40,826 nucleotides of DNA from Acidimicrobiia bacterium (GCA_024763085.1 JANTGE010000003.1:1-40826), one strand, 5' to 3'; shown: positions 4,321 to 19,797, numbered from the stretch's first letter. A program made the numbers and translations. The notes: generated by a model from the sequence alone, not told the origin.

Positions 4321-4721
4321 TGAGCCGAATCCTCGCGCTCGACTACGGAACCGTGCGGATCGGAGTCGCGATGAGCGACCCGTTGCGTCTGACGGCACAG
4401 CCACTCGACGTCCTCGCCGCCGACGACTGGCACGATGCGTTGGAGCGGCTCGTTGCCGAGTACCAGATCGAGGAGATCGTCGTCGGATTGCCGACGTCCC
4501 TGGACGGGTCCGAGACGGCGGCGGCCATGGCGGCTCGGAGCTTCGGTGAGGAGGTGGCGGCGCTGACCGGCCTTCCGGTCTCGTTCGTAGATGAGCGCTT
4601 TAGCACTCGCATCGCCCACGACGCGATGCTCGCCGCCGACGCGTCGAGGGCAACCCGTCGCGGAAACATCGACAAGGTGGCCGCCGCGGTGATTCTGCAA
4701 AGCTGGCTGGATCGCCGATGA
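4320..4721 (+). CDS. ruvX: RuvX/YqgF family nuclease
   Basis: ILALDYGTVRIGVAMSD, VVGLP, VDERFST, IDKVAAAVILQSWL; follows alaS. Confidence 0.96.
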   Translation: MSRILALDYGTVRIGVAMSDPLRLTAQPLDVLAADDWHDALERLVAEYQIEEIVVGLPTSLDGSETAAAMAARSFGEEVAALTGLPVSFVDERFSTRIAHDAMLAADASRATRRGNIDKVAAAVILQSWLDRR

Positions 4722-5779
4722 CGAGTAAGGTCCGCCCCATCGTGGTACTCGCCGCCGTGGCGCTGGTCGCGGTGGTGGCGGTCACGGGGGCCAGAAAGCT
4801 CGCCGCTTGGGTAGGCGGTCTCGGAGGTGTCACCGACGTGACCGCGCCGGCCGACATCGTCGCGGGGGAGAGCGTCGAGGTGGTCATTCCGGCGGGTGTC
4901 GCTGCGAGGCAGATCGGGTCGCTGCTGGCCGAGAAGGGCATCGTCGATTCGTCTCTGGCGTTCGAGGCCGAGGTCCGTCGGCAGGGCGTCGCCGATCGGC
5001 TGCAAGCGGGCACCTACCGGATGGTGACCGGCATGGGACCTGCGGCAGCTCTGGAGGTGTTGCTCAACGGCCCCGAAGACGCTTCTTACCGCATCACGCT
5101 GAGGGAAGGGCTTTGGGTCAGCGAACTGCTTGCTTCGCTGGCGGAGCAGACGCCCTATACGCTGAGCGAGTTCGAAACTGCCCTCGACCAGGTTACGTCT
5201 CCCTATCACAACGGGGAAGCCGCAGACCCGCAGACGTGGGAAGGGCTGCTCTACCCGGACACCTACGAGATCTCCGAAAGCGCCACGCCGGTCCAGATAC
5301 TGCAGAAACTCGCCGACACCATGACGGCGCGGGTCGACAGCCTCGACTGGAGCGCGCTTCAAGCCCGCGGCCTCTCGGTCTACGAGGGCATCATCGTCGC
5401 TTCGATGGTCGAGGCCGAGGCCAAGGTGGACGACGATCGGCCTCTCATCGCCTCGGTGATCGTCAACCGGCTCGAGATCGGCATGCCGCTGCAGATCGAC
5501 GCCACCGTGCTCTATGCGCTCGGCGAACGCGGCAAGGCGCTGACGCTCGACGATCTCGAGATCGACTCGCCCTACAACACCTATCGGATCGGCGGCCTGC
5601 CCCCGACGCCGATCGGAGCGCCGGCATTGCGAAGCCTCGAAGCGGCGGCGCATCCCGCAGACTCCGACTTCCTGTACTACGTCCTTACGTCCGCCGATGG
5701 ACGCCACTCGTTCGCCGAGACGTACGACGAGTTCCTCCGTCTCAAAGCTCAGGCCAAAGCCGACGGGGTCCTTCCCTAA
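4718..5779 (+). CDS. mltG: Endolytic transglycosylase MltG
   Basis: N-terminal TM, EGLLYPDTY, IVASMVEAEA, IASVIVNRL..GMPLQIDATV, SPYNTY..GLPPTPI. Confidence 0.96.
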   Translation: MTSKVRPIVVLAAVALVAVVAVTGARKLAAWVGGLGGVTDVTAPADIVAGESVEVVIPAGVAARQIGSLLAEKGIVDSSLAFEAEVRRQGVADRLQAGTYRMVTGMGPAAALEVLLNGPEDASYRITLREGLWVSELLASLAEQTPYTLSEFETALDQVTSPYHNGEAADPQTWEGLLYPDTYEISESATPVQILQKLADTMTARVDSLDWSALQARGLSVYEGIIVASMVEAEAKVDDDRPLIASVIVNRLEIGMPLQIDATVLYALGERGKALTLDDLEIDSPYNTYRIGGLPPTPIGAPALRSLEAAAHPADSDFLYYVLTSADGRHSFAETYDEFLRLKAQAKADGVLP

Positions 5780-5783
5780 AAGT

Positions 5784-5812
5784 CTCAAGCCCGCTCTCGT
5801 CCGCGCCGACAT
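5784..5812 (+). promoter_or_regulatory. Putative sigma-28/WhiG-family promoter CTCAAG-N15-GCCGACAT
   Basis: Intergenic, upstream of the first pil-cluster gene; same motif and spacing at 8489, 11465 and 12076. Confidence 0.7.
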
Positions 5813-5840
5813 CACGAGAGGAACAGGAAGGGCAAACATC

Positions 5841-6797
5841 ATGTCATTGACCGGTGCGTTGGAGGCATTCCCGATCGCCGAGGTGATCGGTCTGATCGGT
5901 AAGACTCGCAAGAGCGGGGTGCTCAAGATCGACGGGGATCACATCGAGGCGCGCGTCTACTTCTCGGAAGGACGGGTCTCGTACGGCACGACCCGAAGGG
6001 ACGAAGAGTTCCATGCCAAGCTCGTCGAGGCGGGTCTCGTCGATCCGAAGCAGTGGGTGCACGTCGAACGTCGAGAGCGATCCATCGCAGACATTCTCGC
6101 GTCGGGAGCATCAGAGGAGACCCTCACCGCGTTCCTCAAAGATCAGGTTTCCGATGTCCTGTTCCGGATTCTGCGCCAGGACGCCGGCACCTTCTCGTTC
6201 AGCGACGACGTGGCTCCACGGTTCGATACCGGCGTCGTGCTCGACGTCGGCGAGTGCGTGGATGAGGCGAACCACCGCATGGCCCGCTGGGCCGACATCG
6301 AACAGGTCATTCCCGGCGTCGGCTTCCATCTGAGGCCGGTGGCAGCCGCCGCGCCTGACGACGGCTCCCTGCAACTCGACGCCGACGAGTGGCGCGTACT
6401 CGCCGGGTTGCTCGGCCAGGCATCGGTCGAGCATGTGGCCCGAACGCTCGGATGGTCCGAGTTCAAAGCAGCCGAAACCATGGCGGCGATGGTTCGGCGA
6501 GGTCTGCTCGAAGTGGCCGATCACCGACCAAACGCCCGGCATGTGTACGGGGAAGAGGCCGAGGATGTCCCACCGATCGAAGTAGTCGGACCGAGGGTGC
6601 CGGCGTCGCAGGAAGAGGGCCAGGAGGCGTCCGAGGCGACCGAGGAAACCGAGTCCGAGCCGTCGGCCGGCTCCGATGACGACGAGCGGGAACTCCTGAA
6701 AGGAGCCCTCTCCGACATGGTGGCCGAGCCGGATGACCGCCTCTCCGGTCTCCGACGCCGCCGAGGCATCGGGTCGATCGGGAGGGACGGTTCCTAG
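5841..6797 (+). CDS. DUF4388 (PatA-N/PATAN-like) domain protein with predicted winged-helix segment and acidic tail
   Basis: MSLTGALEAFPIAEVIGLIGKTRKSGVLKI...VYFSEGRV...GTFSF is the DUF4388 pattern; EWRVLAGL...SVEHVARTLGWSEFKAAETMAAMVRRGLLEV resembles a wHTH. Purine-rich RBS before ATG 5841. Confidence 0.8.
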   Translation: MSLTGALEAFPIAEVIGLIGKTRKSGVLKIDGDHIEARVYFSEGRVSYGTTRRDEEFHAKLVEAGLVDPKQWVHVERRERSIADILASGASEETLTAFLKDQVSDVLFRILRQDAGTFSFSDDVAPRFDTGVVLDVGECVDEANHRMARWADIEQVIPGVGFHLRPVAAAAPDDGSLQLDADEWRVLAGLLGQASVEHVARTLGWSEFKAAETMAAMVRRGLLEVADHRPNARHVYGEEAEDVPPIEVVGPRVPASQEEGQEASEATEETESEPSAGSDDDERELLKGALSDMVAEPDDRLSGLRRRRGIGSIGRDGS

Positions 6798-8486
6798 ATG
6801 ACCAGCCGCGGCATGGTCAGAAGAGACGCCGGCCACCTGGGCGCGTTGCTCCTCGAAGAGGGGATCGTCACCCAGGAGGCACTCGACCGCGCCCTCGAAA
6901 TCCACGCCGAGTCCGGTTTGCCGCTCGGCCGGGTTCTCGTCGACGAACGCCTCGTCGACGAACGTGACCTGGTTCGGGTGCTGGCGAGATCGATCGGGCT
7001 CGATTTCATCGACCTTCGGGAAGAAACGGTCGATCCGGCAGCGGCCTCGCTGATCCCGGAAGCGCTCGCCAGGCGATACGCCGCGCTGCCGGTTGCTTTC
7101 GACGGCGACAGTCTCGTGGTTGCGATGGCAGACCCGGCGAACGTGCTGGCCATCGACGACATTCGTGCCATCACCGGCCGTGAAGTGCTGCCGAAGGTCG
7201 CGACACGTTCCGACGTCGAAGACGCTATCGGAAAGATCGCTGCGCTCGATGGGTCGGTTACCGACCTTGCCGAACTTGCGGCGGAGGACAGCGTAGAGAC
7301 CCAGGACCTCGGTGCGGTCGAAGCGGCCGCCGACGAGGCGCCGGTCGTGAAGCTCGTCAACATGCTGATCACGAGGGCCGCCGCCGACAGAGCTTCCGAC
7401 ATTCACATCGAGCCCACCGAACGGGATCTCCGAGTTCGGTTCCGCATCGATGGGGTCCTTCACGAGATCATGCGAACGCCCCGTTCGATCTCCAACGCCG
7501 TGGTGTCCCGGCTGAAGATCATGGCAGACATCGACATCGCCGAACGCCGGCGCCCTCAGGACGGGCGCATCAACCTCAAGGTCGGAGGCAGGCAGCTGGA
7601 CCTTCGAGTGTCGTCGCTGCCCACGATCTACGGCGAGAAGGTCGTGATGCGCCTCCTCGATACTTCGACGGCGCTCCTCGAACTCGAAGATCTCGGCTTC
7701 GAGCCCGACACCCTCGAGCGCTACGCCGCTTCCTACACGAAACCGTACGGCACCATCCTGGTGGTCGGCCCGACCGGATCCGGAAAGTCGACGACGCTGT
7801 ACGCAACCCTCAACGTTCTCAACCGGCCCGAAGTCAACATCGTTACCATCGAAGATCCGGTCGAGTACCGGCTTTCGGGGATCAGCCAGGTGCAGGTGAA
7901 CAAGAAGGCCGGACTCACCTTCGCTTCCGCGCTGCGGTCGTTCCTTCGTCAGGACCCGGACATCATGCTCGTCGGCGAGATCCGGGACACCGAGACCGCA
8001 CGGATAGCGATCGAGTCGGCTCTGACCGGACACCTGGTGCTGTCAACGCTGCACACCAACGATGCGCCGTCTTCGATCAGCCGCCTCATCGAAATGGGCG
8101 TCGAGCCGTTTCTCGTCGGCTCGGCGCTCGACGGGGTACTTGCCCAGCGACTGGCCCGCCGCCTCTGTGACAACTGCAAAGAGCAATATGAGCCCACAGA
8201 ACAGGCACTCGAAGAGATCGGATGGGAAGGAGATCCCCCCGAGACGCTCTACCGGCCTGTCGGGTGCAAGGTCTGCTCCAACACGGGGTATCGGGGCCGA
8301 GTGGCCATCCACGAACTCATGTTGGTCGACGAAGACATCGAGCGCCTTGCAGTGGAGCGGGCCTCGACGGAAGTGATCACCCGTGCCGCCATCGCAGGCG
8401 GGATGCGACCTTTGAAACATGATGGGCTGCGAAAAGTGGCCGCAGGGATCACCAGCCTGGAAGAAATCCTCCGGGTCGTCGTCTGA
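6798..8486 (+). CDS. pilB: Type IV pilus extension ATPase PilB (GspE/PulE family) with N-terminal MshEN-type domain
   Basis: ASDIHIEP, DIAERRRPQDGR, GPTGSGKSTTLY, TIEDPVEY, LRQDPDIMLVGEIRD, TGHLVLSTLHTN, zinc motif CDNC..CKVC. Start could be ATG 6813. Confidence 0.95.
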   Translation: MTSRGMVRRDAGHLGALLLEEGIVTQEALDRALEIHAESGLPLGRVLVDERLVDERDLVRVLARSIGLDFIDLREETVDPAAASLIPEALARRYAALPVAFDGDSLVVAMADPANVLAIDDIRAITGREVLPKVATRSDVEDAIGKIAALDGSVTDLAELAAEDSVETQDLGAVEAAADEAPVVKLVNMLITRAAADRASDIHIEPTERDLRVRFRIDGVLHEIMRTPRSISNAVVSRLKIMADIDIAERRRPQDGRINLKVGGRQLDLRVSSLPTIYGEKVVMRLLDTSTALLELEDLGFEPDTLERYAASYTKPYGTILVVGPTGSGKSTTLYATLNVLNRPEVNIVTIEDPVEYRLSGISQVQVNKKAGLTFASALRSFLRQDPDIMLVGEIRDTETARIAIESALTGHLVLSTLHTNDAPSSISRLIEMGVEPFLVGSALDGVLAQRLARRLCDNCKEQYEPTEQALEEIGWEGDPPETLYRPVGCKVCSNTGYRGRVAIHELMLVDEDIERLAVERASTEVITRAAIAGGMRPLKHDGLRKVAAGITSLEEILRVVV

Positions 8487-8488
8487 GC

Positions 8489-8517
8489 GTCAAGGTGGAG
8501 GTTTCGATGACCGATAG
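8489..8517 (+). promoter_or_regulatory. Putative sigma-28/WhiG-family promoter GTCAAG-N15-ACCGATAG
   Basis: Between pilB stop and pilT ATG 8525; same spacing as the other three copies. Confidence 0.65.
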
Positions 8518-8524
8518 AAAGGGT

Positions 8525-10057
8525 ATGACGGTGCGTTCATCTCGTAAGCTCGGCGAACTGCTGGTCGACCAGCGTGTGCTGCCGCGGGACGTGCTGGAAG
8601 ACCTGCTCCGGGTCGAAGCCGACTCGGGCCGTCCTCTGGCCAAACTGCTGGTCGAGCGCGGCCACGTGCGGGAAGAAGACGTCCTTCGGGCAGTGGCGTC
8701 ACGCGTGGACGTTCCCTTCGTCGACCTTGACGATGCGCTGCTGGAACCGCAGGCAACCGGCATGCTTCCTTTCGAACGTGCCGCCGAACTGCTGGCCATG
8801 CCGGTCCGGAGAGAGTCAGACGGGACCGTGCTCGTCGCCGTCGCCGATCCGTTCAACGGGAACCTGCGACTGGCGCTCGAAGAGGACATGAAGAGTCCGG
8901 TGACGCTGGCGATGGCGACTCGAGAGGGCATCCATCGTGCCATCGAGTTCGTGTACGGAAAGGCAGCCGTCACCGCAGAGTCGAAGCCGGAACCTTCGAT
9001 CAACGACATGCTGACCTACGTGATGGAGAATGGTGGGTCAGATCTTCACCTGACCAGCGGAGTCCCACCACAGATACGGGTCAACGGTCGCCTCATGCCC
9101 ATCCCCGGATACGACCCGCTGATGCCCGCCGAACTCCGCCGGATGATCTACGGGATTCTCACCGAACGGCAGAGAGAAGCTTTGGAGGAGCACCTCGAGT
9201 TGGATGGGTCGCATCCGCTGCCCGGTCGCGGCCGATTCCGCATGAACGTGTTCTTCCAGCGGGACTCCATCGGCGCGGTGTTCCGGGCGATACCGACCGA
9301 GATCATGTCGATCGAAGAACTGGGCATGCCACCGGTCCTTGCCGAGTTCGCCGAACTCCATCGTGGCCTCGTGCTCGTCACAGGTCCGACGGGGGCCGGC
9401 AAGTCGACGACGCTCGCGGCGATCATCGACCGTATCAACAATCGGCGAGCGGTGCACATTTTGACCATCGAAGACCCGATTGAGTTTCTTCACCGGCACA
9501 AGAAGGCAATCGTCAATCAACGGGAGGTCGGGAACGACACTCTCGGCTTCCAAACGGCGCTCCGGCATGCACTTCGACAAGACCCGGACGTGCTGCTGGT
9601 GGGGGAGATGCGGGATCTCGAAACGATCTCCACGGCGCTGACGGCTGCCGAGACCGGCCACCTGGTGTTCGCAACGCTGCACACCCAGGACGCGCCCCAG
9701 ACGGTGGATCGGATCATCGACGTGTTTCCCGCGCATCAGCAACAGCAGGTCAGGGTGCAGTTGGCGGCGACGTTGCAGGCCATCGTCACTCAGCAGCTCG
9801 TACCCAGCCGAGACGGTCGCGGCAGGGTCGCCGCTGCCGAGGTGTTGGTTGCCACCCCGGCCATCAGGAACCTGATCCGGGAAGGGAAGACCCAGCAGAT
9901 CGCCACGGCGATGCAGTCCGGCGGGAAGTACGGGATGCAGACCATGGACCAGTCGCTCGCTGACCTGGTCAAGCGACAGAAGATCACGTTCGAAGAGGCC
10001 GTCGATCGCTGCGTGAACCTCGAAGACCTGCGGCGGCTGACCGGACGAGTTGCCTGA
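8525..10057 (+). CDS. pilT: Type IV pilus retraction ATPase PilT with N-terminal MshEN/N1-like extension
   Basis: GSDLHL, GPTGAGKSTTLAA, TIEDPIEF, LRQDPDVLLVGEMRD, AAETGHLVFATLHT, PilT signature AIRNLIRE, GMQTMDQSL; no tetra-Cys motif. Start 8525 or 8507. Confidence 0.93.
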   Translation: MTVRSSRKLGELLVDQRVLPRDVLEDLLRVEADSGRPLAKLLVERGHVREEDVLRAVASRVDVPFVDLDDALLEPQATGMLPFERAAELLAMPVRRESDGTVLVAVADPFNGNLRLALEEDMKSPVTLAMATREGIHRAIEFVYGKAAVTAESKPEPSINDMLTYVMENGGSDLHLTSGVPPQIRVNGRLMPIPGYDPLMPAELRRMIYGILTERQREALEEHLELDGSHPLPGRGRFRMNVFFQRDSIGAVFRAIPTEIMSIEELGMPPVLAEFAELHRGLVLVTGPTGAGKSTTLAAIIDRINNRRAVHILTIEDPIEFLHRHKKAIVNQREVGNDTLGFQTALRHALRQDPDVLLVGEMRDLETISTALTAAETGHLVFATLHTQDAPQTVDRIIDVFPAHQQQQVRVQLAATLQAIVTQQLVPSRDGRGRVAAAEVLVATPAIRNLIREGKTQQIATAMQSGGKYGMQTMDQSLADLVKRQKITFEEAVDRCVNLEDLRRLTGRVA

Positions 10058-10070
10058 CGGGAGGCCCAGC

Positions 10071-11288
10071 ATGGTCACATACGCATATCAGGTCAAAGAC
10101 AAAGAGGGCCTCATCCATAGCGGTGAGCTGAACGCAGACTCGACGGCTGCGGCAGTCCGCACCTTGCGTGATCGGGGCCTGTCTCCGATCTCGATCGAGG
10201 AGCAGAAGGCCTCCGCGCTGCAGAAAGAGATCAAGATCCCCGGTCTCTCCGGCCGGATCAAGACGAAAGAAGTGGCGGTCTTTTCTCGCCAGTTCGCCAC
10301 GATGATCAACGCTGGCCTCTCGCTGCTGCGATCCCTTGCGATCCTGTCCGAGCAGACGCCCAACCGGGCGTTCGCCGAGATCATCTCGGAGATCAAGGCC
10401 GACGTCGAAAAGGGCAAGAGCCTCTCCGAGGCGATGGACGGTCATCCGAAGGCCTTCAATCGACTGTACGTGGCGATGGTGCGCGCCGGTGAGATCGGCG
10501 GCGTGCTCGACGAGACCTTGCTTAGGTTGGCGGACACCCTGGAGCGACAGGTGGAGCTGCGCGGCAAGGTGAAGTCTGCGATGAGCTACCCGATTGCGGT
10601 GCTCGGGCTTGTTGTCCTGATCATGGCGGCCATGCTGATCTTCATCGTCCCCATGTTCGAAGACATGTACGCAGACCTGGGAGGGACGCTGCCGGTTCCA
10701 ACCCAGATACTGCTGTCTGTTTCACAGTTCGCCGTCGCGAAATGGTGGATCGTGCTGCTCGGCTTCGGGGTCTCCTTCTTCGCGTTCCGCAGGTGGGTGG
10801 CGACCGAACAAGGCCGTTTCCTCTTCGATTCGTTCAAACTGAAGGTGCCGATCTTCGGCGGTTTGACGCAGAAGACCGCGATCGCCCGCTTCTCAGAGAC
10901 GCTTGCGTCCCTGACGAGAACTGCCGTCCCGATCCTCCAGGCGATGGATATCGTCGCCGAGACCGCCGGCAATGAGGTCGTCGCTCGAGCCGTCAGGGAG
11001 GTCCGCTCGTCGGTCAAAGAGGGCGAGTCGTTGGCACAGCCACTGTCGAAACATCCCATCTTCCCGCCCATGGTCGTGCAGATGCTGGCCGTTGGCGAAG
11101 AGACTGGGGCACTCGACACGATGCTGGAGAAGATCGGCGACTTCTACAACGCCGAGGTCAACGCGACGGTGGACAGCCTGACCTCGCTCCTCGAACCACT
11201 CTTGATGGTCGTGCTGGGCGGGTCCGTTGGCGGCATGATCGTCGCCCTCTACATGCCGATGTTCAACCTCATCAACCTGGTGCAGTAG
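10071..11288 (+). CDS. pilC: Type IV pilus platform protein PilC (GspF family)
   Basis: FSRQFATMINAGL, MVRAGEIGGVLD, KVKSAMSYP, VGEETGALDTML, LLEP..ALYMPMF; RBS GGGAGG before ATG 10071. Confidence 0.96.
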   Translation: MVTYAYQVKDKEGLIHSGELNADSTAAAVRTLRDRGLSPISIEEQKASALQKEIKIPGLSGRIKTKEVAVFSRQFATMINAGLSLLRSLAILSEQTPNRAFAEIISEIKADVEKGKSLSEAMDGHPKAFNRLYVAMVRAGEIGGVLDETLLRLADTLERQVELRGKVKSAMSYPIAVLGLVVLIMAAMLIFIVPMFEDMYADLGGTLPVPTQILLSVSQFAVAKWWIVLLGFGVSFFAFRRWVATEQGRFLFDSFKLKVPIFGGLTQKTAIARFSETLASLTRTAVPILQAMDIVAETAGNEVVARAVREVRSSVKEGESLAQPLSKHPIFPPMVVQMLAVGEETGALDTMLEKIGDFYNAEVNATVDSLTSLLEPLLMVVLGGSVGGMIVALYMPMFNLINLVQ

Positions 11289-11396
11289 GCAGGCGACCTG
11301 CGACCCCAGAGTGCGGCTCTGAGAAAGTACCTGGTACTTGGTACCAGGTACTTTGGCATTGAAAGCCATCCACTTCGGGTTGGTCATGTCGCCTGC
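11289..11396. repeat. 108-nt nested imperfect inverted repeat with a perfect 14-bp core palindrome (11324-11354)
   Basis: Outer arms GCAGGCGAC (11289-97) and GTCGCCTGC (11388-96); core AAAGTACCTGGTAC-TTG-GTACCAGGTACTTT; intermediate imperfect arms. Confidence 0.85.
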
Positions 11397-11464
11397 GGTT
11401 TGGTCGACAGGGAACTAGTCCGCCGAGCAGGCCGACGATTGGTTCGCGTATGCGACTGAAAGTG

Positions 11465-11493
11465 CTCAAGGACATACGCTCGGTGGTCGATAG
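11465..11493 (+). promoter_or_regulatory. Putative sigma-28/WhiG-family promoter CTCAAG-N15-GTCGATAG
   Basis: Upstream of the major pilin. Followed by a small hairpin GGACCG-AGATC-CGGTCC (11504-11520) and SD GAAGGAG. Confidence 0.7.
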
Positions 11494-11536
11494 CGCATCT
11501 GAGGGACCGAGATCCGGTCCGGAAGGAGAAACCATC

Positions 11537-12010
11537 ATGATGCGCAAGATCCGCGAAGGACTTCGCAACGAAGAAGGCTTCACCCTCGTCGAGTTGATGG
11601 TGGTCGTGCTGATCATTGCCATTCTCATGGCGATTGCCATCCCGACGTTCCTGGGTGCTCGCGAGAAGGCGCAGGACCGCGCCGCGCAGAGCGACCTGCG
11701 GAACGGATTGACTGCAGCGAAGGTGTTCTATGTGGATGGGGAGACCTACCTCGACACTGACGCTGCAACGACGGCGGCTGCCTACGAAGCCCTCGAGCCG
11801 AGCATCGACTTCGATACGGTGGCAAATACGAGCACCAGCAAAGTCGGCGTGCTCGCCACAGCCAGTACCGTTCTGTTGACCAAGGAGAGCGCATCAGGGA
11901 CGTTCTTCTGCATCGCCGATGATACGAGCGGTGGCGGCACGACCTACGGGTCCGGTGCTGCGCTGGCCGATGTAGACACGGTCCTCGAGTGCAACGGCAC
12001 CAGCTGGTAG
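11537..12010 (+). CDS. pilA: Type IVa pilin, probable major pilin
   Basis: Class III signal peptide ...NEEG|FTLVELMVVVLIIAILMAIAIP with E5 and P22; C-terminal Cys pair; strong SD, own promoter and terminator. Confidence 0.92.
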   Translation: MMRKIREGLRNEEGFTLVELMVVVLIIAILMAIAIPTFLGAREKAQDRAAQSDLRNGLTAAKVFYVDGETYLDTDAATTAAAYEALEPSIDFDTVANTSTSKVGVLATASTVLLTKESASGTFFCIADDTSGGGTTYGSGAALADVDTVLECNGTSW

Positions 12011-12028
12011 TCCGAGAACCGAACGCCG

Positions 12029-12055
12029 AGAGAGGGTGGCTCAGCCACCCTCTCT
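12029..12055 (+). terminator. Intrinsic terminator-like hairpin after pilA
   Basis: Perfect 12-bp stem AGAGAGGGTGGC-TCA-GCCACCCTCTCT, 18 nt after the pilA stop; weak U tract. Confidence 0.75.
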
Positions 12056-12075
12056 TCGCGTTGCGGGGTGTTCCA

Positions 12076-12104
12076 CTCAAGGTGAGCCCTCGCCGCACCG
12101 ATGA
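12076..12104 (+). promoter_or_regulatory. Putative sigma-28/WhiG-family promoter CTCAAG-N15-ACCGATGA
   Basis: Directly after the pilA terminator and before the second pilin. Confidence 0.68.
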
Positions 12105-12114
12105 CATGAGCGAT

Positions 12115-12561
12115 ATGAAATCGGAGAGAGGCTTCACGCTTGTCGAGCTGATGGTGGTGGTGCTGATCATCGCCATGCTCATGGCGATCGGCATCCCGAC
12201 GTTCCTAGGTGCGCGAGAGCGGGCGCAAGACCGGGCAGCTGAGAGCAGGCTGATAGCCGCTCTCAAGACCGAGGAGGTCGTCGCCGTCGACGATGCCCAG
12301 TACACTGCCGTGGTGGCGATCTTGGCTGCTGCGGAACCGGCGCTCGACTGGTCGGGCGTTGCCGACGACTCGATTCACATCGTGGTCGGCGCGACGGTCA
12401 ATGCCAACGACACGGTGCTGCTCTACACGCAATCGAGCACCGGCTCGTGGCTCGGCGTGAAACGAGTCGCACAGGGTCCTACCACCGGCGTCTACACCTG
12501 CATCGGAGCGGCCCGCGCGGATGTCGATGACCTTGCCGACTGCACGGGGACGGAGTGGTAG
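12115..12561 (+). CDS. Second type IVa pilin (pilA paralog)
   Basis: MKSERG|FTLVELMVVVLIIAMLMAIGIPTFLGARERAQDRAA; Cys pair; ends CTGTEW. Start 12115 or 12106. Confidence 0.9.
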   Translation: MKSERGFTLVELMVVVLIIAMLMAIGIPTFLGARERAQDRAAESRLIAALKTEEVVAVDDAQYTAVVAILAAAEPALDWSGVADDSIHIVVGATVNANDTVLLYTQSSTGSWLGVKRVAQGPTTGVYTCIGAARADVDDLADCTGTEW

Positions 12562-13319
12562 TCGCTCTCGCCGCCATCCTTGGCCTCATCGTCGGTTCGT
12601 TCATCAACGTTGTCGCCTATCGGGTTCCAGAAGGAAAGTCCGTCGTTTCTCCAGGATCGGCGTGTCCGAACTGTGGAACTCCGATCAGACCCTATGACAA
12701 CATCCCGGTTGTCTCATGGCTCGTGCTGCGTGGGCGGTGCCGGGACTGTGGTAGTCGCATCTCCGTACGGTATCCGGTAGTGGAGGCGGGGACCGCAGTA
12801 CTCTTTGCCGCCGCCTTATTGGTCGTGGGCCTGCATTGGATCCTGGCCGCGTACCTGTGGTTTGCCGGTGTGACCATGACCCTCATCCTCACCGACCTCG
12901 ACCATCATCGACTACCCAACAAGATCGTCTATGTCGGAACGGCGGTTGGGGTCGTCCTCCTGACTGCCGGTGCTGTTGCCGACGGTCTGACGTCGAACTT
13001 GGGGAGGGCGCTGCTGGGCGGCGTGATCTACTTCGGCCTGCTCCTCCTCATCGCCATCGCTGCCCGCGGGGGCTTCGGCATGGGGGACGTCAAGCTCTCC
13101 TTCATGCTCGGCGTGTTCCTCGCCTTCCGCTCCTGGGCGGTGCTCGCATCCGGCGTCTTTCTGGCGTTCTTCGTCGGTGGCATCGTCTCGGTTGGCTTGC
13201 TGCTGCTGAGGCGGCGTGGTCGTAAGGACGCGATCGCCTTCGGCCCGGCCCTCATCGTTGGGGCCTGGCTTGCCCTGGGCATCGGAGAGCCGCTCGTACG
13301 GTGGTACCTCGGCGTCTGA
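12555..13319 (+). CDS. pilD: Prepilin peptidase/N-methyltransferase PilD (A24A)
   Basis: GSFINVVAYRVP, CPNC..DNIPVVSWLVLRGRCRDC..ISVRYPVVE, catalytic Asp motifs TDLDHHRLP and GMGDVKL, AFGPAL. Confidence 0.95.
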   Translation: MVVALAAILGLIVGSFINVVAYRVPEGKSVVSPGSACPNCGTPIRPYDNIPVVSWLVLRGRCRDCGSRISVRYPVVEAGTAVLFAAALLVVGLHWILAAYLWFAGVTMTLILTDLDHHRLPNKIVYVGTAVGVVLLTAGAVADGLTSNLGRALLGGVIYFGLLLLIAIAARGGFGMGDVKLSFMLGVFLAFRSWAVLASGVFLAFFVGGIVSVGLLLLRRRGRKDAIAFGPALIVGAWLALGIGEPLVRWYLGV

Positions 13320-13412
13320 TTGCTTGCAGCTTCTACCGTCCATTGGTAGGGTTCAAACAACATCGATGTAATTCGATGGTTGCCGGAGCGCTACCGGCTG
13401 GGCGGAGTAAAC

Positions 13413-14477
13413 ATGACGACGAATGTCGGGTTGGACATCGGCACCAGTGCTGTAAGAGCAGCCATGGTACAGATGCAAAGGGGAGCACCGGTACTCAAAC
13501 GGTACGGCCAAGTCGCGCTGACCGAAGGTGCCGTGGTCGGCGGTGAAATCGTCGACCCCGATCTGGTGCGAGATGCCCTGATCGCGCTCTGGAAGAGCGC
13601 GAAACTCCCGAAAAGACGGGTCGTCGTCGGCATCGCCAACCAGCGGATCATCGTTCGCCGCCTCGACGTTCCCTACATGTCCGAAGAGGAACTGCGGGAG
13701 TCGCTCGCCTTCCGGGCGGCGGAGTACGTTCCGATGGCGATCGACGACGCCGTCCTCGACTTCGTGCCCCTCGAAGAGTTCGCCACTCCAGAAGGCGAAG
13801 CCATGCTGTCGGTCCTTGTCATTGCCGCCCAGAAAGACATGATCGACGAAGTGCTTGGAGTGGTGACGGGGGCCGGCATCAAACCTATGGCGCTCGACCT
13901 TCAAGCGTTTGCGATGGTCCGGGCCGCGTTCGGCACCGAATTCGATGTGCCCCCGGGTTCTCAGGCAATGGTCAACATCGGTGCTGGGGTGACGCAGGTT
14001 GCGATCCTCAAGAACGGAACCGTTCGCTTTCTGCGCATCATGCCGATGGGAGGGAGCTCATTCACGAGAGCGCTGGCAAGCGCCGCGTCCATTTCATCGG
14101 ATGAAGCCGAACGCTTGAAGCGCCGCATCGGTGTTCTTCCAGAGGGCCGCGCAGATGCGGAAGGGGACCCGGGGAGAGCCGCCCTCACGAGGGAAGCCGA
14201 CGCCCTCATCGAGGAAGTTCGGGGGTCCCTCGACTTCTACCTCTCCGAAGCCCAGGATGAACGCATTGAGCGAGTCCTGATCTCCGGCAACGGAGCCAGA
14301 CTGCCCCATCTGGCCAACCGGCTGGCTTCGCAACTCGAGGTACCCATCGAACCGCTCCGGGTGTTGGCAGAGGGAAGGGTGCAAACGGGCAAGGTCGGCA
14401 TGTCCGAAGCAGAACTGGCACAGATCGAACCGGTCTTGCCTGTGCCGCTCGGCCTTGCGATGTGGGGTGAAGCCTGA
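13413..14477 (+). CDS. pilM: Type IV pilus assembly protein PilM (actin-like)
   Basis: VGLDIGTSAVRA, MVNIGAGVTQV, MGGSSFTRAL, EEVRGSLDFY, ISGNGARL; SD GGAG before ATG 13413. Confidence 0.93.
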   Translation: MTTNVGLDIGTSAVRAAMVQMQRGAPVLKRYGQVALTEGAVVGGEIVDPDLVRDALIALWKSAKLPKRRVVVGIANQRIIVRRLDVPYMSEEELRESLAFRAAEYVPMAIDDAVLDFVPLEEFATPEGEAMLSVLVIAAQKDMIDEVLGVVTGAGIKPMALDLQAFAMVRAAFGTEFDVPPGSQAMVNIGAGVTQVAILKNGTVRFLRIMPMGGSSFTRALASAASISSDEAERLKRRIGVLPEGRADAEGDPGRAALTREADALIEEVRGSLDFYLSEAQDERIERVLISGNGARLPHLANRLASQLEVPIEPLRVLAEGRVQTGKVGMSEAELAQIEPVLPVPLGLAMWGEA

Positions 14478-15097
14478 TGCGTCCCGTCAACCTGCTGCCG
14501 GGAGAGCTGGCCAAGAAAGCCGCAGGCCGCCGCCGACTGTTTGGCCTCATGGCCCTCGGAGCAGCCTATGTGTTGGTGCTGGTCATGGTGGCCGTGTGGT
14601 GGAACGGGAAGCTCGCAGACGCCGAGGCGGAGCTGGCGCGGCAGGAGCAACTCAACACTGCTACCTCAGGCAAGATCGCAGCGCTGAAAGATGCCGAGGA
14701 GCTCAGATCCACCTACGACACCGATGTGGCCCTGGTACAAGCTGCGCTGGCACGCGACGTCGCATGGGGGCGACTCTTCAACGACCTTGCCCGGGTGATT
14801 CCCGAGCGGGTATGGCTCACAGGATTCTCCGGGACGGCCGTCGATGATCCGGATGCGCCGGAAGTGTACGGACAGCTGCAAATGAGTGGCACGGCGTTCG
14901 ACTACCCGGACGTCTCGACCTGGCTTCGGGTACTCGACGAGGATCCCTGGCCCTCGGTCGGTGGAGGATGGGTGACATCAGCCACGCTCTCGAGCATCGG
15001 TGAAGTCCCGATTGTGGAGTTCAACTCTGCTGCATCTCTGACCGCAGCAAGCCTTTCCGAACGCGCCGCCGAACGGATACCCGAGGTGCCGCAATGA
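14477..15097 (+). CDS. pilN: Type IV pilus alignment protein PilN
   Basis: N-terminal VNLLP motif, TM helix, coiled coil, W..LFNDLARVIPERVWLTGF. Confidence 0.9.
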   Translation: MRPVNLLPGELAKKAAGRRRLFGLMALGAAYVLVLVMVAVWWNGKLADAEAELARQEQLNTATSGKIAALKDAEELRSTYDTDVALVQAALARDVAWGRLFNDLARVIPERVWLTGFSGTAVDDPDAPEVYGQLQMSGTAFDYPDVSTWLRVLDEDPWPSVGGGWVTSATLSSIGEVPIVEFNSAASLTAASLSERAAERIPEVPQ

Positions 15098-15741
15098 AAC
15101 GTCAGACGCTGGTCGTCGCCTTGCTCGTCTTCGTAGCGGTCACGGCCCTGTGGTACATGTTCGGACTGCGGCCGATCAACGAGAAGATCGGCGAGACGGA
15201 TTCCCAGCTTCAGGCTGCGCAGGATGAGGCGGTGCTTCTGCAAACCAGATTGGCGAGACTGCAGAAGATCCGTGACAACGAACTCAGCTACATCTCGGCC
15301 ATAGGTGCCCTCGAAGCGCAGATTCCGCCGACGCCGAGTATGCCGGGACTCATCGAAGACCTGAACACTCTTGCCGATGAGACCGGCATCGACTGGCTCG
15401 GTGCGACCTGGGGCGCTCCGACGGAGATCGAAGGTGCAGGGTATTTCGAGATACCCATCACCTTGCAGGTCGAAGGACAATTCTTCGAACTGCTCGGCTA
15501 CCTGTACGGGATGTCGGACCTGGAGCGACTCGTCCGGATCGACGGCGTAACGATCTCCCCAACCGAGCAGGACGGCTTCATCGTGCTCAACGTGACGATC
15601 AACGCCAAAGCGTTTGCTACCAGCGGCATTGCGGTTCCGGAGATCCCTGCCGACGAAGAGACCACCACGACCACGACCGAACCGTCGACCACGACTACGA
15701 CGACGGAGGCAACCACGACGACCACGACAGGAGGTGCCTGA
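15094..15741 (+). CDS. pilO: Type IV pilus alignment protein PilO with Thr-rich tail
   Basis: N-terminal TM, coiled coil, IPPTPSMPGLIEDL, EIPITLQVEGQFFELLGYL..LERLVRID; follows pilN. Confidence 0.88.
   Translation: MKRQTLVVALLVFVAVTALWYMFGLRPINEKIGETDSQLQAAQDEAVLLQTRLARLQKIRDNELSYISAIGALEAQIPPTPSMPGLIEDLNTLADETGIDWLGATWGAPTEIEGAGYFEIPITLQVEGQFFELLGYLYGMSDLERLVRIDGVTISPTEQDGFIVLNVTINAKAFATSGIAVPEIPADEETTTTTTEPSTTTTTTEATTTTTTGGA
15661..15729 (+). repeat. Low-complexity ACN repeat encoding three runs of six Thr
   Basis: TTTTTT-EPS-TTTTTT-EA-TTTTTT at the PilO C-terminus, mixed synonymous codons. Confidence 0.9.
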
Positions 15742-16238
15742 TGACGGCGAGAACCGGCACCGCGGTCGCTGTCTCCATCCTGATGCTCGGCGTCGCGGTG
15801 GCGGTGAGCTGGCTCCTGCTCGGTCCGGCCATCATGGGAGCGTCCCCCGCGGCCCTCGACGGCCCTCTTGCCCAGCCGAGTCCTGCCGCACCCGCCCCGG
15901 CAGGGCTCGCAGGGCAGGAGATCGCCACCGGTGCGTTTCAGCTCGCCCAGCCCCGGGACCCGTTCAGGCCGCTGATCACCGAAGGATCCCCGGTTGGAGG
16001 TGGGGGAGGGACCGGCACCTTCGAGCCGTCCGGGATCCGGGTAGAGCTCATGGAGGTCCGCGACGTAGCCGGTGTCTTGCGAGCGACGGTGCAAGTCGAC
16101 TCCACCTCATACGATGTAGGAGTCGGTGACGTCTTCGCCGACGACTTCATGGTGGTGAGTCTCGACACCGACTCAGTGGTGATCCTCTACCGGGACAACG
16201 CCTTCACCCTGACGGTTGGCGATGTGATCTTCAAGTAG
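15741..16238 (+). CDS. PilP/GspC-like membrane-anchored protein
   Basis: After pilO; N-terminal TM, Pro/Ala linker, RDPFRPL motif, beta-rich C-terminal domain (RATVQVDSTSYDVGVGD); no Cys, so no lipobox. Confidence 0.65.
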   Translation: MTARTGTAVAVSILMLGVAVAVSWLLLGPAIMGASPAALDGPLAQPSPAAPAPAGLAGQEIATGAFQLAQPRDPFRPLITEGSPVGGGGGTGTFEPSGIRVELMEVRDVAGVLRATVQVDSTSYDVGVGDVFADDFMVVSLDTDSVVILYRDNAFTLTVGDVIFK

Positions 16239-16276
16239 GACTTGCCGAGCCGTCCGACCGTGTCGAAACTATCACC

Positions 16277-17410
16277 ATGTTGCGATTCCTCACCGCCGGA
16301 GAGTCTCATGGTGTCGGACTCGTCACCATCGTCGACGGTCTGCCGGCTGGTCTTCGGTTCACCGCCGATGGGCTCGCCGGAGAGTTGGCACGGCGCCGGC
16401 AGGGATACGGCCGCGGACCGAGGATGCGGATCGAACGGGATGAGATCGAGATCATCGCCGGGATCCGGTTCGGCCTCACCACCGGCGCGCCCGTTGCGGT
16501 GGTCATCCGCAACACGGAAGCGGAACGGTGGAAGGACGAGTTGGACCCCGCTCCAGGAGGCAGGCCGAAGCGCCTCCTGACGACTCCCCGTCCCGGACAT
16601 GCCGACCTGCCCGGCATGCAGAAATACGACACCGGGGACGCCCGCCCGATCCTGGAGCGGGCCTCGGCCCGAGAGACCGCCGCAAGGGCGGTTGCCGGCT
16701 ATGCCGCCGAGGAACTCCTGGCGGCGCTCGGGGTGTCCGTCGTTGGCTCGGTCGTCCAGATTGGCGGCGAGACCGCCTCCCGGGCCGCCACCGTCGCGGA
16801 GCGGGAACTCATCGAAGCGTCGCCGACCAGATCCGTCGATGGTGCCGAGGCCATGATGATGGCGATCGACCGTGCCAAAGCCGACAGGGACACGCTGGGA
16901 GGAATCTTCGCGGTGGTAGCCGAAGGCGTACCCGCCGGACTCGGCTCTCACACCCAGTGGGACCGGCGACTCGACGGTCTGCTTGGACGGGCACTTCTGT
17001 CGATTCCCGCGGTGAAAGGCGTCGAGATCGGCGACGCGTTCGCCACGGCAGCGGGCCCCGGATCGGCGGCCCACGACGAGATCGACACCGATCGACGGCG
17101 CCTCTCCAACCGTGCAGGTGGCGTCGAGGGAGGAATGAGCAACGGCGAACCGATCGTGGTCAAAGCGGCGATGAAGCCTCTCTCGACGCTGATGCGCCCG
17201 CTTCGCACCGTGGACGTCGCAACCGGCGGGGCCGATGTGGCCTTCCGGGAGCGATCCGATGTCTGTGCCGTCCCGGCCGCGTCGGTCGTCGGCGAACACA
17301 TGGTGGCATGGACCCTTGCCGTGGCTTTCGTCGAGATGTTCGGAGGCGACACGATCACGGACGTGCAGGAGCGGGTCGCCGCCTACCGCGCGAGACTGGA
17401 CGAACGTTGA
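16277..17410 (+). CDS. aroC: Chorismate synthase
   Basis: MLRFLTAGESHG, RRRQGYGRGPRM, PRPGHADL, LERASARETAAR, NRAGGVEGGMSNG, ERSDVCAVP. Confidence 0.98.
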   Translation: MLRFLTAGESHGVGLVTIVDGLPAGLRFTADGLAGELARRRQGYGRGPRMRIERDEIEIIAGIRFGLTTGAPVAVVIRNTEAERWKDELDPAPGGRPKRLLTTPRPGHADLPGMQKYDTGDARPILERASARETAARAVAGYAAEELLAALGVSVVGSVVQIGGETASRAATVAERELIEASPTRSVDGAEAMMMAIDRAKADRDTLGGIFAVVAEGVPAGLGSHTQWDRRLDGLLGRALLSIPAVKGVEIGDAFATAAGPGSAAHDEIDTDRRRLSNRAGGVEGGMSNGEPIVVKAAMKPLSTLMRPLRTVDVATGGADVAFRERSDVCAVPAASVVGEHMVAWTLAVAFVEMFGGDTITDVQERVAAYRARLDER

Positions 17411-19444: not shown

Positions 19445-19446
19445 CC

Positions 19447-19797
19447 ATCGAAGCGAGAGCCCGCGCCGTGCAGGCGCTCTACGAAGCCGATCTTCGAGGC
19501 GGTGCGCCAGAGTTGAGCGACCTGCCACCCAAGGCTCGACGCCTGGTCGAGGGCACCCTCGAGCATCTTGCCGAACTCGACGCGGAGCTGGCCGCGACGT
19601 CGCGTCGCTGGCGGGTGGAGCGTATGGCACCGGTCGATCGGGCAATACTCCGGCTCGGACTCTATGAGCTGCGCCACGAAGCCACTCCGCCCGGCGTCGT
19701 CATCTCCGAGGCGGTCGATCTGGCAAAGACCTACTCGACCGACCGCAGCTCCGAATTCGTCAACGGGCTGCTTGCAACGCTCGCCGCCGACCGCTGA
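19447..19797 (+). CDS. nusB: Transcription antitermination factor NusB (start uncertain: ATC 19447 or GTG 19468)
   Basis: ARARAVQALYE, WRVERMAPVDRAILRLGLYEL, VVISEAVDLAKTYST..FVNGLL; follows efp. Confidence 0.93.
   Translation: MEARARAVQALYEADLRGGAPELSDLPPKARRLVEGTLEHLAELDAELAATSRRWRVERMAPVDRAILRLGLYELRHEATPPGVVISEAVDLAKTYSTDRSSEFVNGLLATLAADR

Follow-up and report, generated by a model that had tools for sequence, protein, structure and literature searches.

The type IV pilus genes of an uncultured Acidimicrobiia bacterium are preceded by four copies of one bipartite motif, TCAAG-N15-(G/A)(C/T)CGA(T/C), and these sites, P1 to P4, are very probably promoters for RNA polymerase carrying a sigma-28-family factor, most likely the WhiG orthologue, which is probably controlled by RsiG and c-di-GMP. 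Acidimicrobiia live in large numbers in water, soil and sludge, most of them have not been cultured, and to our knowledge gene regulation in this class is almost unstudied. Direct reading of the DNA places the motif at 5785, 8490, 11466 and 12077 of the window, by which we mean the whole stretch of 40,826 nucleotides analysed here. An earlier note on this DNA had proposed four sites with a 15-nt spacer, intergenic and just 5′ of pil genes; the coordinates and letters it gave are exactly those of the DNA, and under our own gene map all four sites are located as it said. The features of the region are as follows.

5784..5812, + strand: P1, putative promoter; CTCAAG at 5784-5789 (-35 TCAAG, 5785-5789), 15-nt spacer, -10 GCCGACAT at 5805-5812
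5841..6797, + strand: DUF4388-domain protein, first gene of the P1 operon (Pfam PF14332, 64.1 bits)
6798..8486, + strand: pilB, pilus assembly ATPase with an N-terminal MshE-type c-di-GMP-binding motif (PF00437, 473 bits; PF05157)
8489..8517, + strand: P2, putative promoter; GTCAAG at 8489-8494 (-35 TCAAG, 8490-8494), 15-nt spacer, -10 ACCGATAG at 8510-8517
8525..10057, + strand: PilT/PilU-family ATPase with an N-terminal MshEN-like extension (TIGR01420, 489.4, cut-off 319.1; PF05157)
10071..11288, + strand: pilC, platform protein (PF00482, 223.7 bits)
11465..11493, + strand: P3, putative promoter; CTCAAG at 11465-11470 (-35 TCAAG, 11466-11470), 15-nt spacer, -10 GTCGATAG at 11486-11493
11504..11520, + strand: conserved stem-loop with a 6-bp stem, where the pilin mRNA is predicted to begin (10/10 sequences; compensatory changes in three pairs)
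11537..12010, + strand: type IV pilin 1, 157 aa (PF07963 N_methyl)
12019..12066, + strand: strong hairpin between both pilin genes (-38.4 kcal/mol, z -5.55, equalled by 0/200 shuffles)
12076..12104, + strand: P4, putative promoter; CTCAAG at 12076-12081 (-35 TCAAG, 12077-12081), 15-nt spacer, -10 ACCGATGA at 12097-12104
12115..16238, + strand: P4 operon, six genes (Pfam matches), namely the following
12115-12561, + strand: pilin 2 (Pfam)
12555-13319, + strand: pilD, prepilin peptidase (Pfam)
13380-14477, + strand: pilM (Pfam)
14477-15097, + strand: pilN (Pfam)
15094-15741, + strand: pilO (Pfam)
15741-16238, + strand: protein of no known family, last gene of the operon, conserved in relatives

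P1 is located between the stop codon of mltG (5779) and the ATG of the DUF4388 gene (5841), P2 inside the 38-nt gap from the pilB stop (8486) to the ATG of the next ATPase gene (8525), P3 between the pilC stop (11288) and the pilin ATG (11537), and P4 between the stop of the first pilin gene (12010) and the ATG of the second (12115). Including P1, whose -10 is the GCCGAC variant, all of them read TCAA-N16-(G/A)(C/T)CGA and agree with the sigma-28 consensus, that is, T(A/C)AA, 16 nt and a GCCGATAA-like -10 with invariant CGA, which we took from two papers (Schumacher et al., PNAS 2021, PMC8325347; Denis et al., bioRxiv 2026, PMC12871210). The note had seen no such site before housekeeping genes, and this holds for the window, since a position matrix gave no further site there scoring 14 or more. 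Only two weaker matches were obtained, both in coding DNA, at 12263 (13.6) and at 5923 (13.1); the latter, with its poor -10 ATCGAGGC, is the near match inside a coding sequence (5922-5950) to which the note itself had drawn attention.

The four sites would divide the cluster into four units: DUF4388-pilB, the pilT-like ATPase with pilC, pilin 1 closed by the hairpin, and pilin 2-pilD-pilMNO. In each unit region 4 of the sigma factor would contact the -35 TCAAG, regions 2/3 would contact the extended -10 (G/A)CCGAT(A/G) 15 nt downstream, and transcription would start about 7-8 nt past the -10 box. For P1 the predicted start is at about 5819-5821, which would leave an SD-type leader up to the ATG at 5841. 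The ATG at 8525 starts 7 nt past the -10 of P2 and the mRNA is thus predicted to be leaderless, and because the ATG at 12115 starts 10 nt past that of P4, a leader of at most 2-3 nt is predicted there. The starts predicted for P2, P3 and P4 are at about 8524-8526, 11500-11502 and 12111-12113. The hairpin behind pilin 1 lacks a T-run and was therefore missed by a simple terminator scan; it is probably a terminator of the kind that has no U-tract. Together these genes make up a monoderm-type pilus set, with assembly ATPase, platform protein, prepilin peptidase, PilMNO and pilins with the N-methylation motif. PilB passes NF053729 (55.7, cut-off 38) and is slightly below the cut-off of TIGR02538 (653.5 against 675.65), and its gene is adjoined by the DUF4388 gene in relatives as well; the ATPase at 8525..10057 scores 34.6 with NF053729, below the cut-off of 38. 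According to NCBIfam, PilT-family ATPases are encoded there and at G000:C118, where G000 stands for this genome. The protein at 15741-16238 has no match in Pfam or NCBIfam.

Can such short boxes simply be chance matches in GC-rich DNA in which YCGA is very common? The earlier note had raised this caveat rightly: the loose form of the motif is common inside genes, with a heavy 3-periodic coding background (43 matches at a spacer of 15, against 23-30 at 9, 12, 18 and 21). The stricter TCAAG-N(k)-NCCGAT behaves differently, with 19 matches genome-wide at k=15 and 2-11 at each other k from 8 to 23. TCAA-N17-CCGAT has 14 intergenic and 13 'coding' matches, about half being intergenic where intergenic DNA makes up 7.7% of the genome; genes were called with our own crude caller, which misplaced both pilin starts, and two of the 13 'coding' matches are P3 and P4 themselves, misassigned through over-long start calls. 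For the published WhiG2 query T(A/C)AA-N16-GCCGA (PMC12871210), which the pilus motif equals, 15 of the 60 matches are intergenic, and other spacings from N12 to N20 give only 0-5 intergenic ones. Genome-wide counts with a matrix, as the note had asked for, are partly circular because the matrix was trained on 16 sites hand-picked as intergenic; the spacing and intergenic tests above were run independently of these seed sites. Moreover, a start codon follows the box by 5-10 nt in 10 of the 19 intergenic spacer-15 matches scoring 16 or more, and by exactly 7 nt in six of them, while control spacings gave 4/25 and 7/57 for 5-10 nt and none at 7 nt. This frequent 7-nt distance fits leaderless mRNAs. 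Thus the spacing expected of sigma-28 promoters is enriched, in intergenic positions and in the orientation pointing at genes, and since dozens of genomes also keep the motif at orthologous sites, a chance origin of the four sites is scarcely credible.

At the same positions in relatives both boxes are kept and the spacer sequence drifts. Counting relatives only, with the window left out, and bearing in mind that the counts are not independent because the genomes are kin, TCAAG-N15-GCCGA was found at P1 in 6/6 relatives having the region, TCAAG-N15-RCCGA at P2 in 9/13, and a sigma-28-type site 5′ of the pilin gene (P3) in 12 of 14 named relatives. The arrangement of P4 recurs in two (L030 and L039) of the five relatives with a second pilin, the start codon being 7-8 nt past the box. 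In a sample of the order, 19 of 24 usable pilin loci score 13 or more, and 17/18 if the pilin start is recognisable. The promoter classes are not sharp: besides the GCCGAC of P1, P2 reads GCCGAATC in four relatives and scores only 9-10 there, and P3 has spacers of 14-16 in relatives, with -35 TTAAG or TAAAG in two loci.

The same observations bear on another reading, in which the motif merely resembles a sigma-28 promoter and serves a DNA-binding regulator as operator, or a sigma factor from a different family as promoter. At least three further sigma-70-family genes in the genome match TIGR02479 weakly (106-116 bits), and nothing specific speaks in favour of this reading. A pair of short conserved boxes whose distance is constant while the spacer sequence varies has the anatomy of a promoter rather than of an operator, a -10 box fixed 7 nt before many start codons is expected of leaderless transcripts, and the letters agree with the published sigma-28/WhiG consensus. 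In addition, TCAAG-N15-RCCGATR occurs 332 times in 41 WhiG-positive genomes of the order (8.1 each) against 13 times in five WhiG-less genomes, with 22 matches across all 46 when the pattern is read backward as a control, and the one WhiG-less family of the order is depleted of it. We regard the operator or other-sigma reading as very improbable.

The note had also called for a search for whiG/fliA and rsiG, and the genome has both a WhiG orthologue and a twin-motif RsiG. The WhiG orthologue (G000:C4, 266 aa), encoded in the order dprA-xerC-whiG-rpsB-tsf, passes the sigma-28-family model TIGR02479 (8775-9443; 277.4 bits, cut-off 189.6) and the NCBIfam WhiG equivalog NF004935 (349.9, cut-off 343), and matches the S. 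venezuelae WhiG chain 6pfj_A with 311.5 bits. RsiG (G000:C63:4865-5386, 173 aa) has two E-x3-S-x2-R-x3-[QH]-x3-D c-di-GMP motifs, and its gene is the sole called gene in the genome with that pattern; no NCBIfam model matches it, and among solved structures its best match is 6pfj_T (E 5.4e-13), followed by Rubrobacter RsiG chains (E 1e-3). One strong GGDEF protein (C184, 164.9 bits) and three weaker ones point to a capacity for c-di-GMP synthesis. By analogy with Streptomyces and Rubrobacter, RsiG would hold WhiG at high c-di-GMP and free it as c-di-GMP falls. All 29 PilC-positive genomes of the order sample have WhiG; in one assembly (G004) WhiG was not found, though pilus promoters and RsiG are kept. 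Spacing, intergenic enrichment, the 7-nt start distance, conservation of the boxes and the presence of whiG and rsiG all speak for the sigma-28/WhiG type that the note had suggested.

The assignment to WhiG in particular needed a further argument, because flagellar genes are present in the genome as well, and with them a second, divergent sigma-28 paralogue (G000:C22:5102-5932, 174.9 bits with TIGR02479), which sits among flhA, flhB, fliPQR, motAB, flgE, flgKL, fliW and csrA. If P1-P4 are real sigma-28-type promoters read by this paralogue, or by both paralogues interchangeably, then pili would belong to the flagellar hierarchy, outside RsiG/c-di-GMP control. FliA-family sigmas are reported to drive flagellar as well as pilus genes of Actinoplanes missouriensis (PMC8325347), the published query for WhiG1, CTCA-N16-17-GCCGA, matches the pilus sites too (PMC12871210), and a TCAAG-type, pilus-class site is found upstream of the paralogue's own gene in 6/7 genomes, which may indicate autoregulation. 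Against this, 15 of the 19 motif-bearing pilin loci in the order sample are in genomes where WhiG is the sole sigma-28-family match at E<=1e-40, and the concentration of TCAAG-N15-RCCGATR in WhiG-positive genomes and the presence of WhiG in all PilC-positive ones also favour WhiG. Flagellar promoters, in turn, form a separate class, T(T/A)AA(C/G)-N14-GCCGAC: in the flagellar clusters of six genomes, 18 intergenic sigma-28-like sites are near-uniform and unlike the pilus class, with a spacer of 14 in 17/18, GCCGAC in 16/18 and a T(T/A)AA -35 in 16/18. All 13 matches to this pattern in four flagellated genomes are on flagellar contigs, and in the other 42 genomes it occurs 0.33 times per genome, below the backward-read control of about one. 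For genomes with both sigmas, the authors of a published survey were unable to tell the two regulons apart (PMC12871210), whereas the flagellar and pilus classes are separate here. Reading of the pilus sites by the flagellar-cluster paralogue, or by both paralogues interchangeably, appears unlikely.

With WhiG as the preferred reader of P1-P4, it might even be possible that in this order the RsiG-WhiG c-di-GMP switch stands at the head of a sigma-28 cascade that has two tiers and two promoter classes distinct from each other, an idea that we offer tentatively and hold at somewhat less than even chances. WhiG would read TCAAG-N15-(G/A)CCGAT directly, in front of pili, pilT, Che-like signalling genes, hydrolases and a SigB/RpoD-like sigma gene; it would also transcribe the gene of the second sigma-28, which would then read T(T/A)AA(C/G)-N14-GCCGACNG in the flagellar cluster. 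The idea comes from the uniformity of the flagellar class and its confinement to flagellar contigs, from the persistence of the pilus class where only WhiG is found, and from the pilus-class site before the second sigma's gene. If true, one second messenger would gate both surface appendages via two sigmas.

Is the regulon one of pili, as the earlier note had claimed? The pil operons do bear sites, but signalling and cell-wall genes bear them too. The candidate regulon has about 25-30 sites, and the same promoter type is found 5′ of a separate pilT, of an operon with a CheA-like kinase, of genes for histidine kinases, single-domain response regulators and cell-wall (peptidoglycan) hydrolases, and of a sigma gene of SigB/RpoD-like type. 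Pili therefore seem to be one arm of a regulon of surface motility and envelope remodelling. SigD of Bacillus subtilis is a sigma-28 that couples motility, chemotaxis-type signalling and cell-wall hydrolases, the organelle being the flagellum and the anti-sigma FlgM; compared with that regulon, the targets here are pili and the partner is RsiG. Autolysis is also named as a sigma-28 function in the introduction of the survey (PMC12871210).

Such a regulon, probably under c-di-GMP control via RsiG by analogy, is testable for Acidimicrobiia, placing type IV pili, a second PilT, chemosensory-type kinases and peptidoglycan hydrolases under one promoter class, and Rubrobacter-type WhiG-pilus wiring, as predicted from sequence, would be conserved throughout an order that belongs to another class. 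In its flagellated members, nature provides material with which the promoter preferences of both actinobacterial sigma-28 clades could be told apart, and the many 7-nt distances from box to ATG provide start-codon corrections for annotating Acidimicrobiia genomes of the order.

How does this arrangement compare with known systems? Wiring of WhiG to pili has already been published for other actinobacteria (PMC8325347, PMC12871210), and the predicted promoters extend it to Acidimicrobiia. The (RsiG)2-(c-di-GMP)2-WhiG switch and the type IV pilus promoters of Rubrobacter radiotolerans have been described (Schumacher et al., PNAS 2021, PMC8325347), and the link to Rubrobacter that the note had mentioned is real. 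Like Rubrobacter, this bacterium belongs to a non-sporulating, single-celled actinobacterial lineage and has a WhiG-family sigma with an RsiG partner, and sigma-28-type promoters split one type IV pilus cluster, three in Rubrobacter and four in the window (PMC8325347). It differs from Rubrobacter in having flagella and, with them, a second sigma-28, and in a -35 of TCAAG instead of TAAA; Rubrobacter sites are backed by transcription-start mapping (PMC8325347), while those here are predicted from sequence. Five of 12 Rubrobacter promoters precede cyclase/phosphodiesterase genes (PMC8325347), whereas none of the first genes downstream of the sites here clearly encodes a diguanylate cyclase or phosphodiesterase. 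Rubrobacter RsiG has one motif and acts as a homodimer (PMC8325347), and RsiG here is of the twin-motif form as in Streptomyces (6pfj), aligned over residues 19-170 of 173; Streptomyces WhiG, though, targets the sporulation regulators whiH and whiI, not pili (PMC12871210). The survey of WhiG1 and WhiG2 in Actinomycetota (Denis et al., bioRxiv 2026, PMC12871210) names pilus targets in Cellulomonadaceae, Cryptosporangiaceae, Sanguibacteraceae, Rubrobacteraceae and Jonesiaceae; the word stem 'Acidimicrobi' is absent from its main text, and its supplementary tables may list such genomes. As here, type IV pilus, chemotaxis, regulator and sigma genes are preceded by WhiG sites in its predictions, and for each of its two classes, WhiG2 with RsiG and WhiG1 in the flagellar cluster without RsiG (PMC12871210), this genome encodes one protein that fits.

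Four sites resembling promoters of the sigma-28/WhiG family, which an earlier note had recognised in the pilus region, lie exactly where they had been placed. TCAAG is found at 5785, 8490, 11466 and 12077, each time followed after a 15-nt spacer by a -10 box (for the four sites, GCCGACAT, ACCGATAG, GTCGATAG and ACCGATGA), and all four are intergenic and point at a pil gene, as had been claimed.

Sites and gene map of the pilus region (P1-P4, the four WhiG-like sites)
Left flank: mgsA-like gene, alaS, ruvX and mltG, in that order
5784-5812, +: P1, followed by the gene for a DUF4388 protein (5841-6797) and pilB (6798-8486)
8489-8517, +: P2, followed by the gene for a PilT/PilU-family ATPase with an MshEN-like N-terminus (8525-10057) and pilC (10071-11288)
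11465-11493, +: P3, followed by pilin 1 (11537-12010) and a strong hairpin
12076-12104, +: P4, followed by pilin 2 (12115-12561), pilD, pilM, pilN, pilO and the gene for a protein without known family (to 16238)
Right flank: aroC, aroK, aroB, efp, nusB, then pyr genes

Since the flanks are alaS-ruvX-mltG on one side and aroC-aroK-aroB-efp-nusB on the other, the pilus cluster is inserted in a housekeeping array. It sits between mltG and aroC (flanks 4718-5779 and 16277-19797), and relatives have identical flanks. No further site scoring at least 14 is present in the window, in line with the observation that housekeeping genes are not preceded by such a site. The near match at 5922-5950, already flagged as lying in coding DNA, is indeed weak (site at 5923), and is ruled out as a promoter because of its low score of 13.1, its poor -10 (ATCGAGGC) and its position inside the DUF4388 coding sequence. 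A scan of 5600-16400 for sigma-70-type promoters gave one internal match against 1.3 expected and called none in the four gaps; nor did it pick up the hairpin behind pilin 1, which has an energy of -38.4 kcal/mol (z -5.55). A 6-bp stem-loop at 11504-11520, 2-4 nt away from where the pilin mRNA is predicted to begin, is kept in 10/10 relatives, with changes on both sides in three of its pairs, and is possibly a 5′-end stabiliser. The DUF4388 gene, the first of the P1 operon, adjoins pilB in relatives too; DUF4388 corresponds to the PATAN domain of regulators steering pilus motors in cyanobacteria and myxobacteria.

Can such a short motif be more than a chance pattern in an assembly of 1.94 Mb (211 contigs, 65% G+C, 89.6% complete)? 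Three tests of enrichment are independent of our seed sites. In the genome, TCAAG-N(k)-NCCGAT is most frequent at k=15, with 19 matches against 2-11 at the 15 other spacings tried. TCAA-N17-CCGAT has 14 intergenic and 13 'coding' matches, two of the latter being P3 and P4 misassigned through crude start calls, in a genome of which intergenic DNA makes up 7.7%. The published WhiG2 query, T(A/C)AA-N16-GCCGA, has 15 of its 60 matches in intergenic DNA, and other spacings within N12-N20 give 0-5 intergenic matches. The matrix scan that the earlier note had proposed points the same way: with a matrix from 16 intergenic seeds and a score of at least 16, 19 of 31 matches at spacer 15 are intergenic, against 0-3 at spacers 12-14 and 16-18, a comparison that is partly circular. 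The distance to the start codon gives an independent signature: a start codon follows the box by 5-10 nt in 10 of these 19 intergenic matches, and by exactly 7 nt in six; at control spacings the 5-10 nt distance is found in 4/25 and 7/57 and the 7-nt distance never. The excess at 7 nt matches the pattern expected of leaderless mRNAs begun by this promoter, with which P2 (7 nt to the start codon) and P4 (10 nt) agree, and the start 10 nt after the P4 box gives pilin 2 a normal short prepilin leader. Genome-wide, TGAA-N15-CCGAG has nine intergenic and nine coding matches, and may be a promoter class of another sigma factor.

The sites are also seen in relatives, whose PilC proteins show 53-77% identity in named public genomes, all of them uncultured Acidimicrobiia or Actinomycetota assemblies. 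Counted at orthologous positions in relatives only, our own window being left out, P1 (TCAAG-N15-GCCGA) is kept in all six relatives holding the region; P2 in 9/13, four of the nine carrying GCCGAATC with a score of only 9-10 (missing from L035, L037, L042 and L043); P3 in 12/14 with spacers of 14-16, the L043 site being doubtful (missing from L036 and L042); and P4 in 2/5. Between genomes the spacer letters vary and both boxes are constant. An even sampling of the same order (the order sample) provided 27 non-own loci, reduced to 24 by leaving out L075 and L076, from unpublished genomes, and L084, which is too short. A site scoring at least 13 lies between pilC and the pilin gene in 19 of the 24 and one scoring at least 16 in 14; where a pilin start is recognisable, 17/18 loci score at least 13. 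It is to be noted that the two samples partly overlap (G214, for example, is the genome of L033) and consist of kin, so that their counts are non-independent.

The candidate regulators, whose presence the earlier note had left to be checked, are both encoded in the genome. The sigma on contig C4 exceeds the cut-offs of TIGR02479 (277 bits; cut-off 189.6) and of the NCBI WhiG equivalog (349.9; cut-off 343), and matches WhiG of S. venezuelae (6pfj) with 311 bits vs 173 bits for FliA. Its gene stands in the order dprA-xerC-whiG-rpsB-tsf, and no WhiG-type site is seen before it among the candidate sites (none on C4 near 8600-8775). For the anti-sigma RsiG, all called genes were searched for E-x3-S-x2-R-x3-[Q/H]-x3-D, a motif published in PMC8325347. 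One gene, C63:4865-5386, has two motif copies. Among solved structures, its product is closest to the RsiG chain of 6pfj, with E 5e-13 over residues 19-170 of 173, and the Rubrobacter RsiG chains rank next. Of 201 genomes sampled from the class, 149 have RsiG relatives (a tally that includes the unpublished G202), and the 2021 paper notes RsiG in 3/4 Acidimicrobiales (PMC8325347). GGDEF proteins are encoded in the genome as well. One relative, G004 (L039, L058), keeps the pilus promoters along with an RsiG at 73% identity; its 2.0-Mb assembly contains no sigma-28 above 114 bits, for which an assembly gap is the likeliest explanation. PilB has an MshE-type motif for c-di-GMP binding (NF053729, 55.7 vs cut-off 38), and the PilT/PilU-family ATPase (TIGR01420, 489 bits) an unusual MshEN-like N-terminal extension slightly under the cut-off (34.6). 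From these protein sequences, c-di-GMP may act twice on the pilus system.

WhiG is not the only sigma of this family in the genome. A second sigma-28-like gene lies on contig C22 amid flagellar genes (flhA, 763 bits; flhB, fliPQR, motAB, flgE, flgKL, fliW and csrA); its product stays under every curated cut-off (174.5 bits) and matches WhiG of 6pfv with 127 bits. The assembly yielded no flagellin gene; its PF00669 match is to the flgL-like gene. The pattern T(T/A)AA(C/G)-N14-(G/T)CCGAC, which defines a flagellar class of sites, has four intergenic and no coding matches in this genome.

Flagellar-class sites of the genome
C22:11253-11279, -: flagellar-class site
C22:16042-16068, -: flagellar-class site
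C197:158-184, -: flagellar-class site
C176 near 85, -: flagellar-class site

The genes that follow are flhB, motA, a frame running off contig C197, and one further gene. Flagellar clusters of five other genomes keep this class as well: the six clusters contain 18 intergenic sigma-28-like sites, nearly all alike and unlike those of the pilus class, with spacer 14 in 17, GCCGAC in 16 and, likewise in 16, T(T/A)AA as the -35. T(T/A)AA(C/G)-N14-GCCGACNG has 13 matches in the order sample's four flagellated genomes, all on flagellar contigs, and 14 in the other 42, below the backward-read control (48 in 46 genomes). Pilus and flagellar sites are separated only by -35, spacer and -10 combined; T vs C in the -10 is not a sharp divider alone (P1 has GCCGAC), nor is spacer length alone (P3 in relatives has spacers 14-16).

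Then, which sigma reads the pilus sites? Among 19 motif-bearing pilin loci, 15 come from genomes in which WhiG is the sole sigma-28-family match at E<=1e-40 (one, G062, being a single contig), and every one of the 29 PilC-positive genomes in the order sample has WhiG. TCAAG-N15-RCCGATR has 332 matches in 41 WhiG-positive genomes, 13 in five genomes of one family without WhiG, and 22 in 46 genomes when read backward (the unpublished G207 and G210 are counted in the pilus-class tallies, but no conclusion rests on them). The WhiG-only genomes, the distinct flagellar class and the scarcity of the pattern without WhiG favour WhiG as the probable reader. Loss of flagella failed as a means of telling the paralogues apart, because G001 and G002, without FlhA, still keep the second sigma. 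The second gene and three of its C22 neighbours are kept in G001, G002, G070, G211 and G214 (L066, L067), in none of which FlhA was found. A pilus-class site precedes the second sigma's gene in six of seven genomes (the exception is G023), which hints at a cascade in which WhiG would transcribe the gene of the second sigma; autoregulation, in which the second sigma would read the site before its own gene, may explain it instead. Upstream of this gene, the perfect palindrome GACTATTT GG AAATAGTC (G000:C22:5011-5028) abuts the -35 TCAAG and may be an operator.

The earlier note spoke of a pilus regulon, and pil genes are indeed among the targets, but candidate targets also include signalling, cell-wall and other genes. 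Beyond the window there are 27 candidate sites, from which 20 loci were fetched and 36 downstream proteins scanned with Pfam, seven weak or doubtful sites having been left out beforehand. Sites on C42, C63, C51, C21 and C54 were dropped for doubtful or distant downstream frames and that on C209 for ACAAG as its -35; a second C12 site is already covered by L019. Among the first genes following the sites, those for pili encode a PilT of 360 aa and, after a site with spacer 16, a cpaB/cpaE-like pair. Signalling is represented by a CheA-like Hpt-kinase-CheW-receiver protein, behind which a receiver protein and a kinase are encoded, by three single-domain receivers and by another three histidine kinases, of PAS, GAF and hybrid types. 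Cell-wall products are an L,D-transpeptidase, a SpoIID-CWB2 protein, a CAP protein and three M23 peptidases, of which one has LysM and another CWB2. Other first genes encode an ADP-ribosylglycohydrolase, a SigB/RpoD-like sigma and a number of small secreted proteins without known family. Among the scanned first genes, none at an operon head is clearly that of a cyclase or phosphodiesterase. Within G000:C15:18784-19794, the top-scoring site of the genome (TCAAG-N15-GCCGATAT, score 25.0) precedes the gene of the 308-aa SigB/RpoD-like sigma, and therefore WhiG may drive a further sigma.

From the motif, its distribution and the genes, all of which are shown here, we infer the transcription starts, the acting sigma and the control by c-di-GMP as follows. 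WhiG holoenzyme would initiate at P1-P4 and about 25 other sites; in the window, starts are predicted 7-8 nt past the -10 boxes, at about 5819-5821, 8524-8526, 11500-11502 and 12111-12113. At high c-di-GMP, WhiG would be restrained by RsiG in combination with c-di-GMP. Transcription of the abundant pilin 1 message would end at the hairpin behind its gene, and a new transcript, covering pilin 2 through pilO, would begin at P4.

The link to type IV pili in Rubrobacter that the earlier note mentions is real: start-site mapping in Rubrobacter radiotolerans has shown pilus promoters driven by WhiG, 3/12 WhiG promoters lying within the pilus cluster (PMC8325347). Such promoters are also reported for Actinoplanes (PMC8325347) and predicted for five more families in PMC12871210. 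The finding of WhiG-type promoter sites before pilus genes here is real and well supported, and, with these precedents, belongs to an already known kind. In contrast to Rubrobacter, operons after the sites here do not clearly begin with a cyclase or phosphodiesterase gene. The second sigma-28 fits the flagellar, RsiG-independent 'WhiG1' described in the 2026 preprint (PMC12871210), according to which the regulons are not distinguishable where both sigmas are in one genome. The main text of that preprint does not name Acidimicrobiia, which its supplementary tables may list. What goes beyond print is a separable flagellar promoter class and a possible two-tier cascade.
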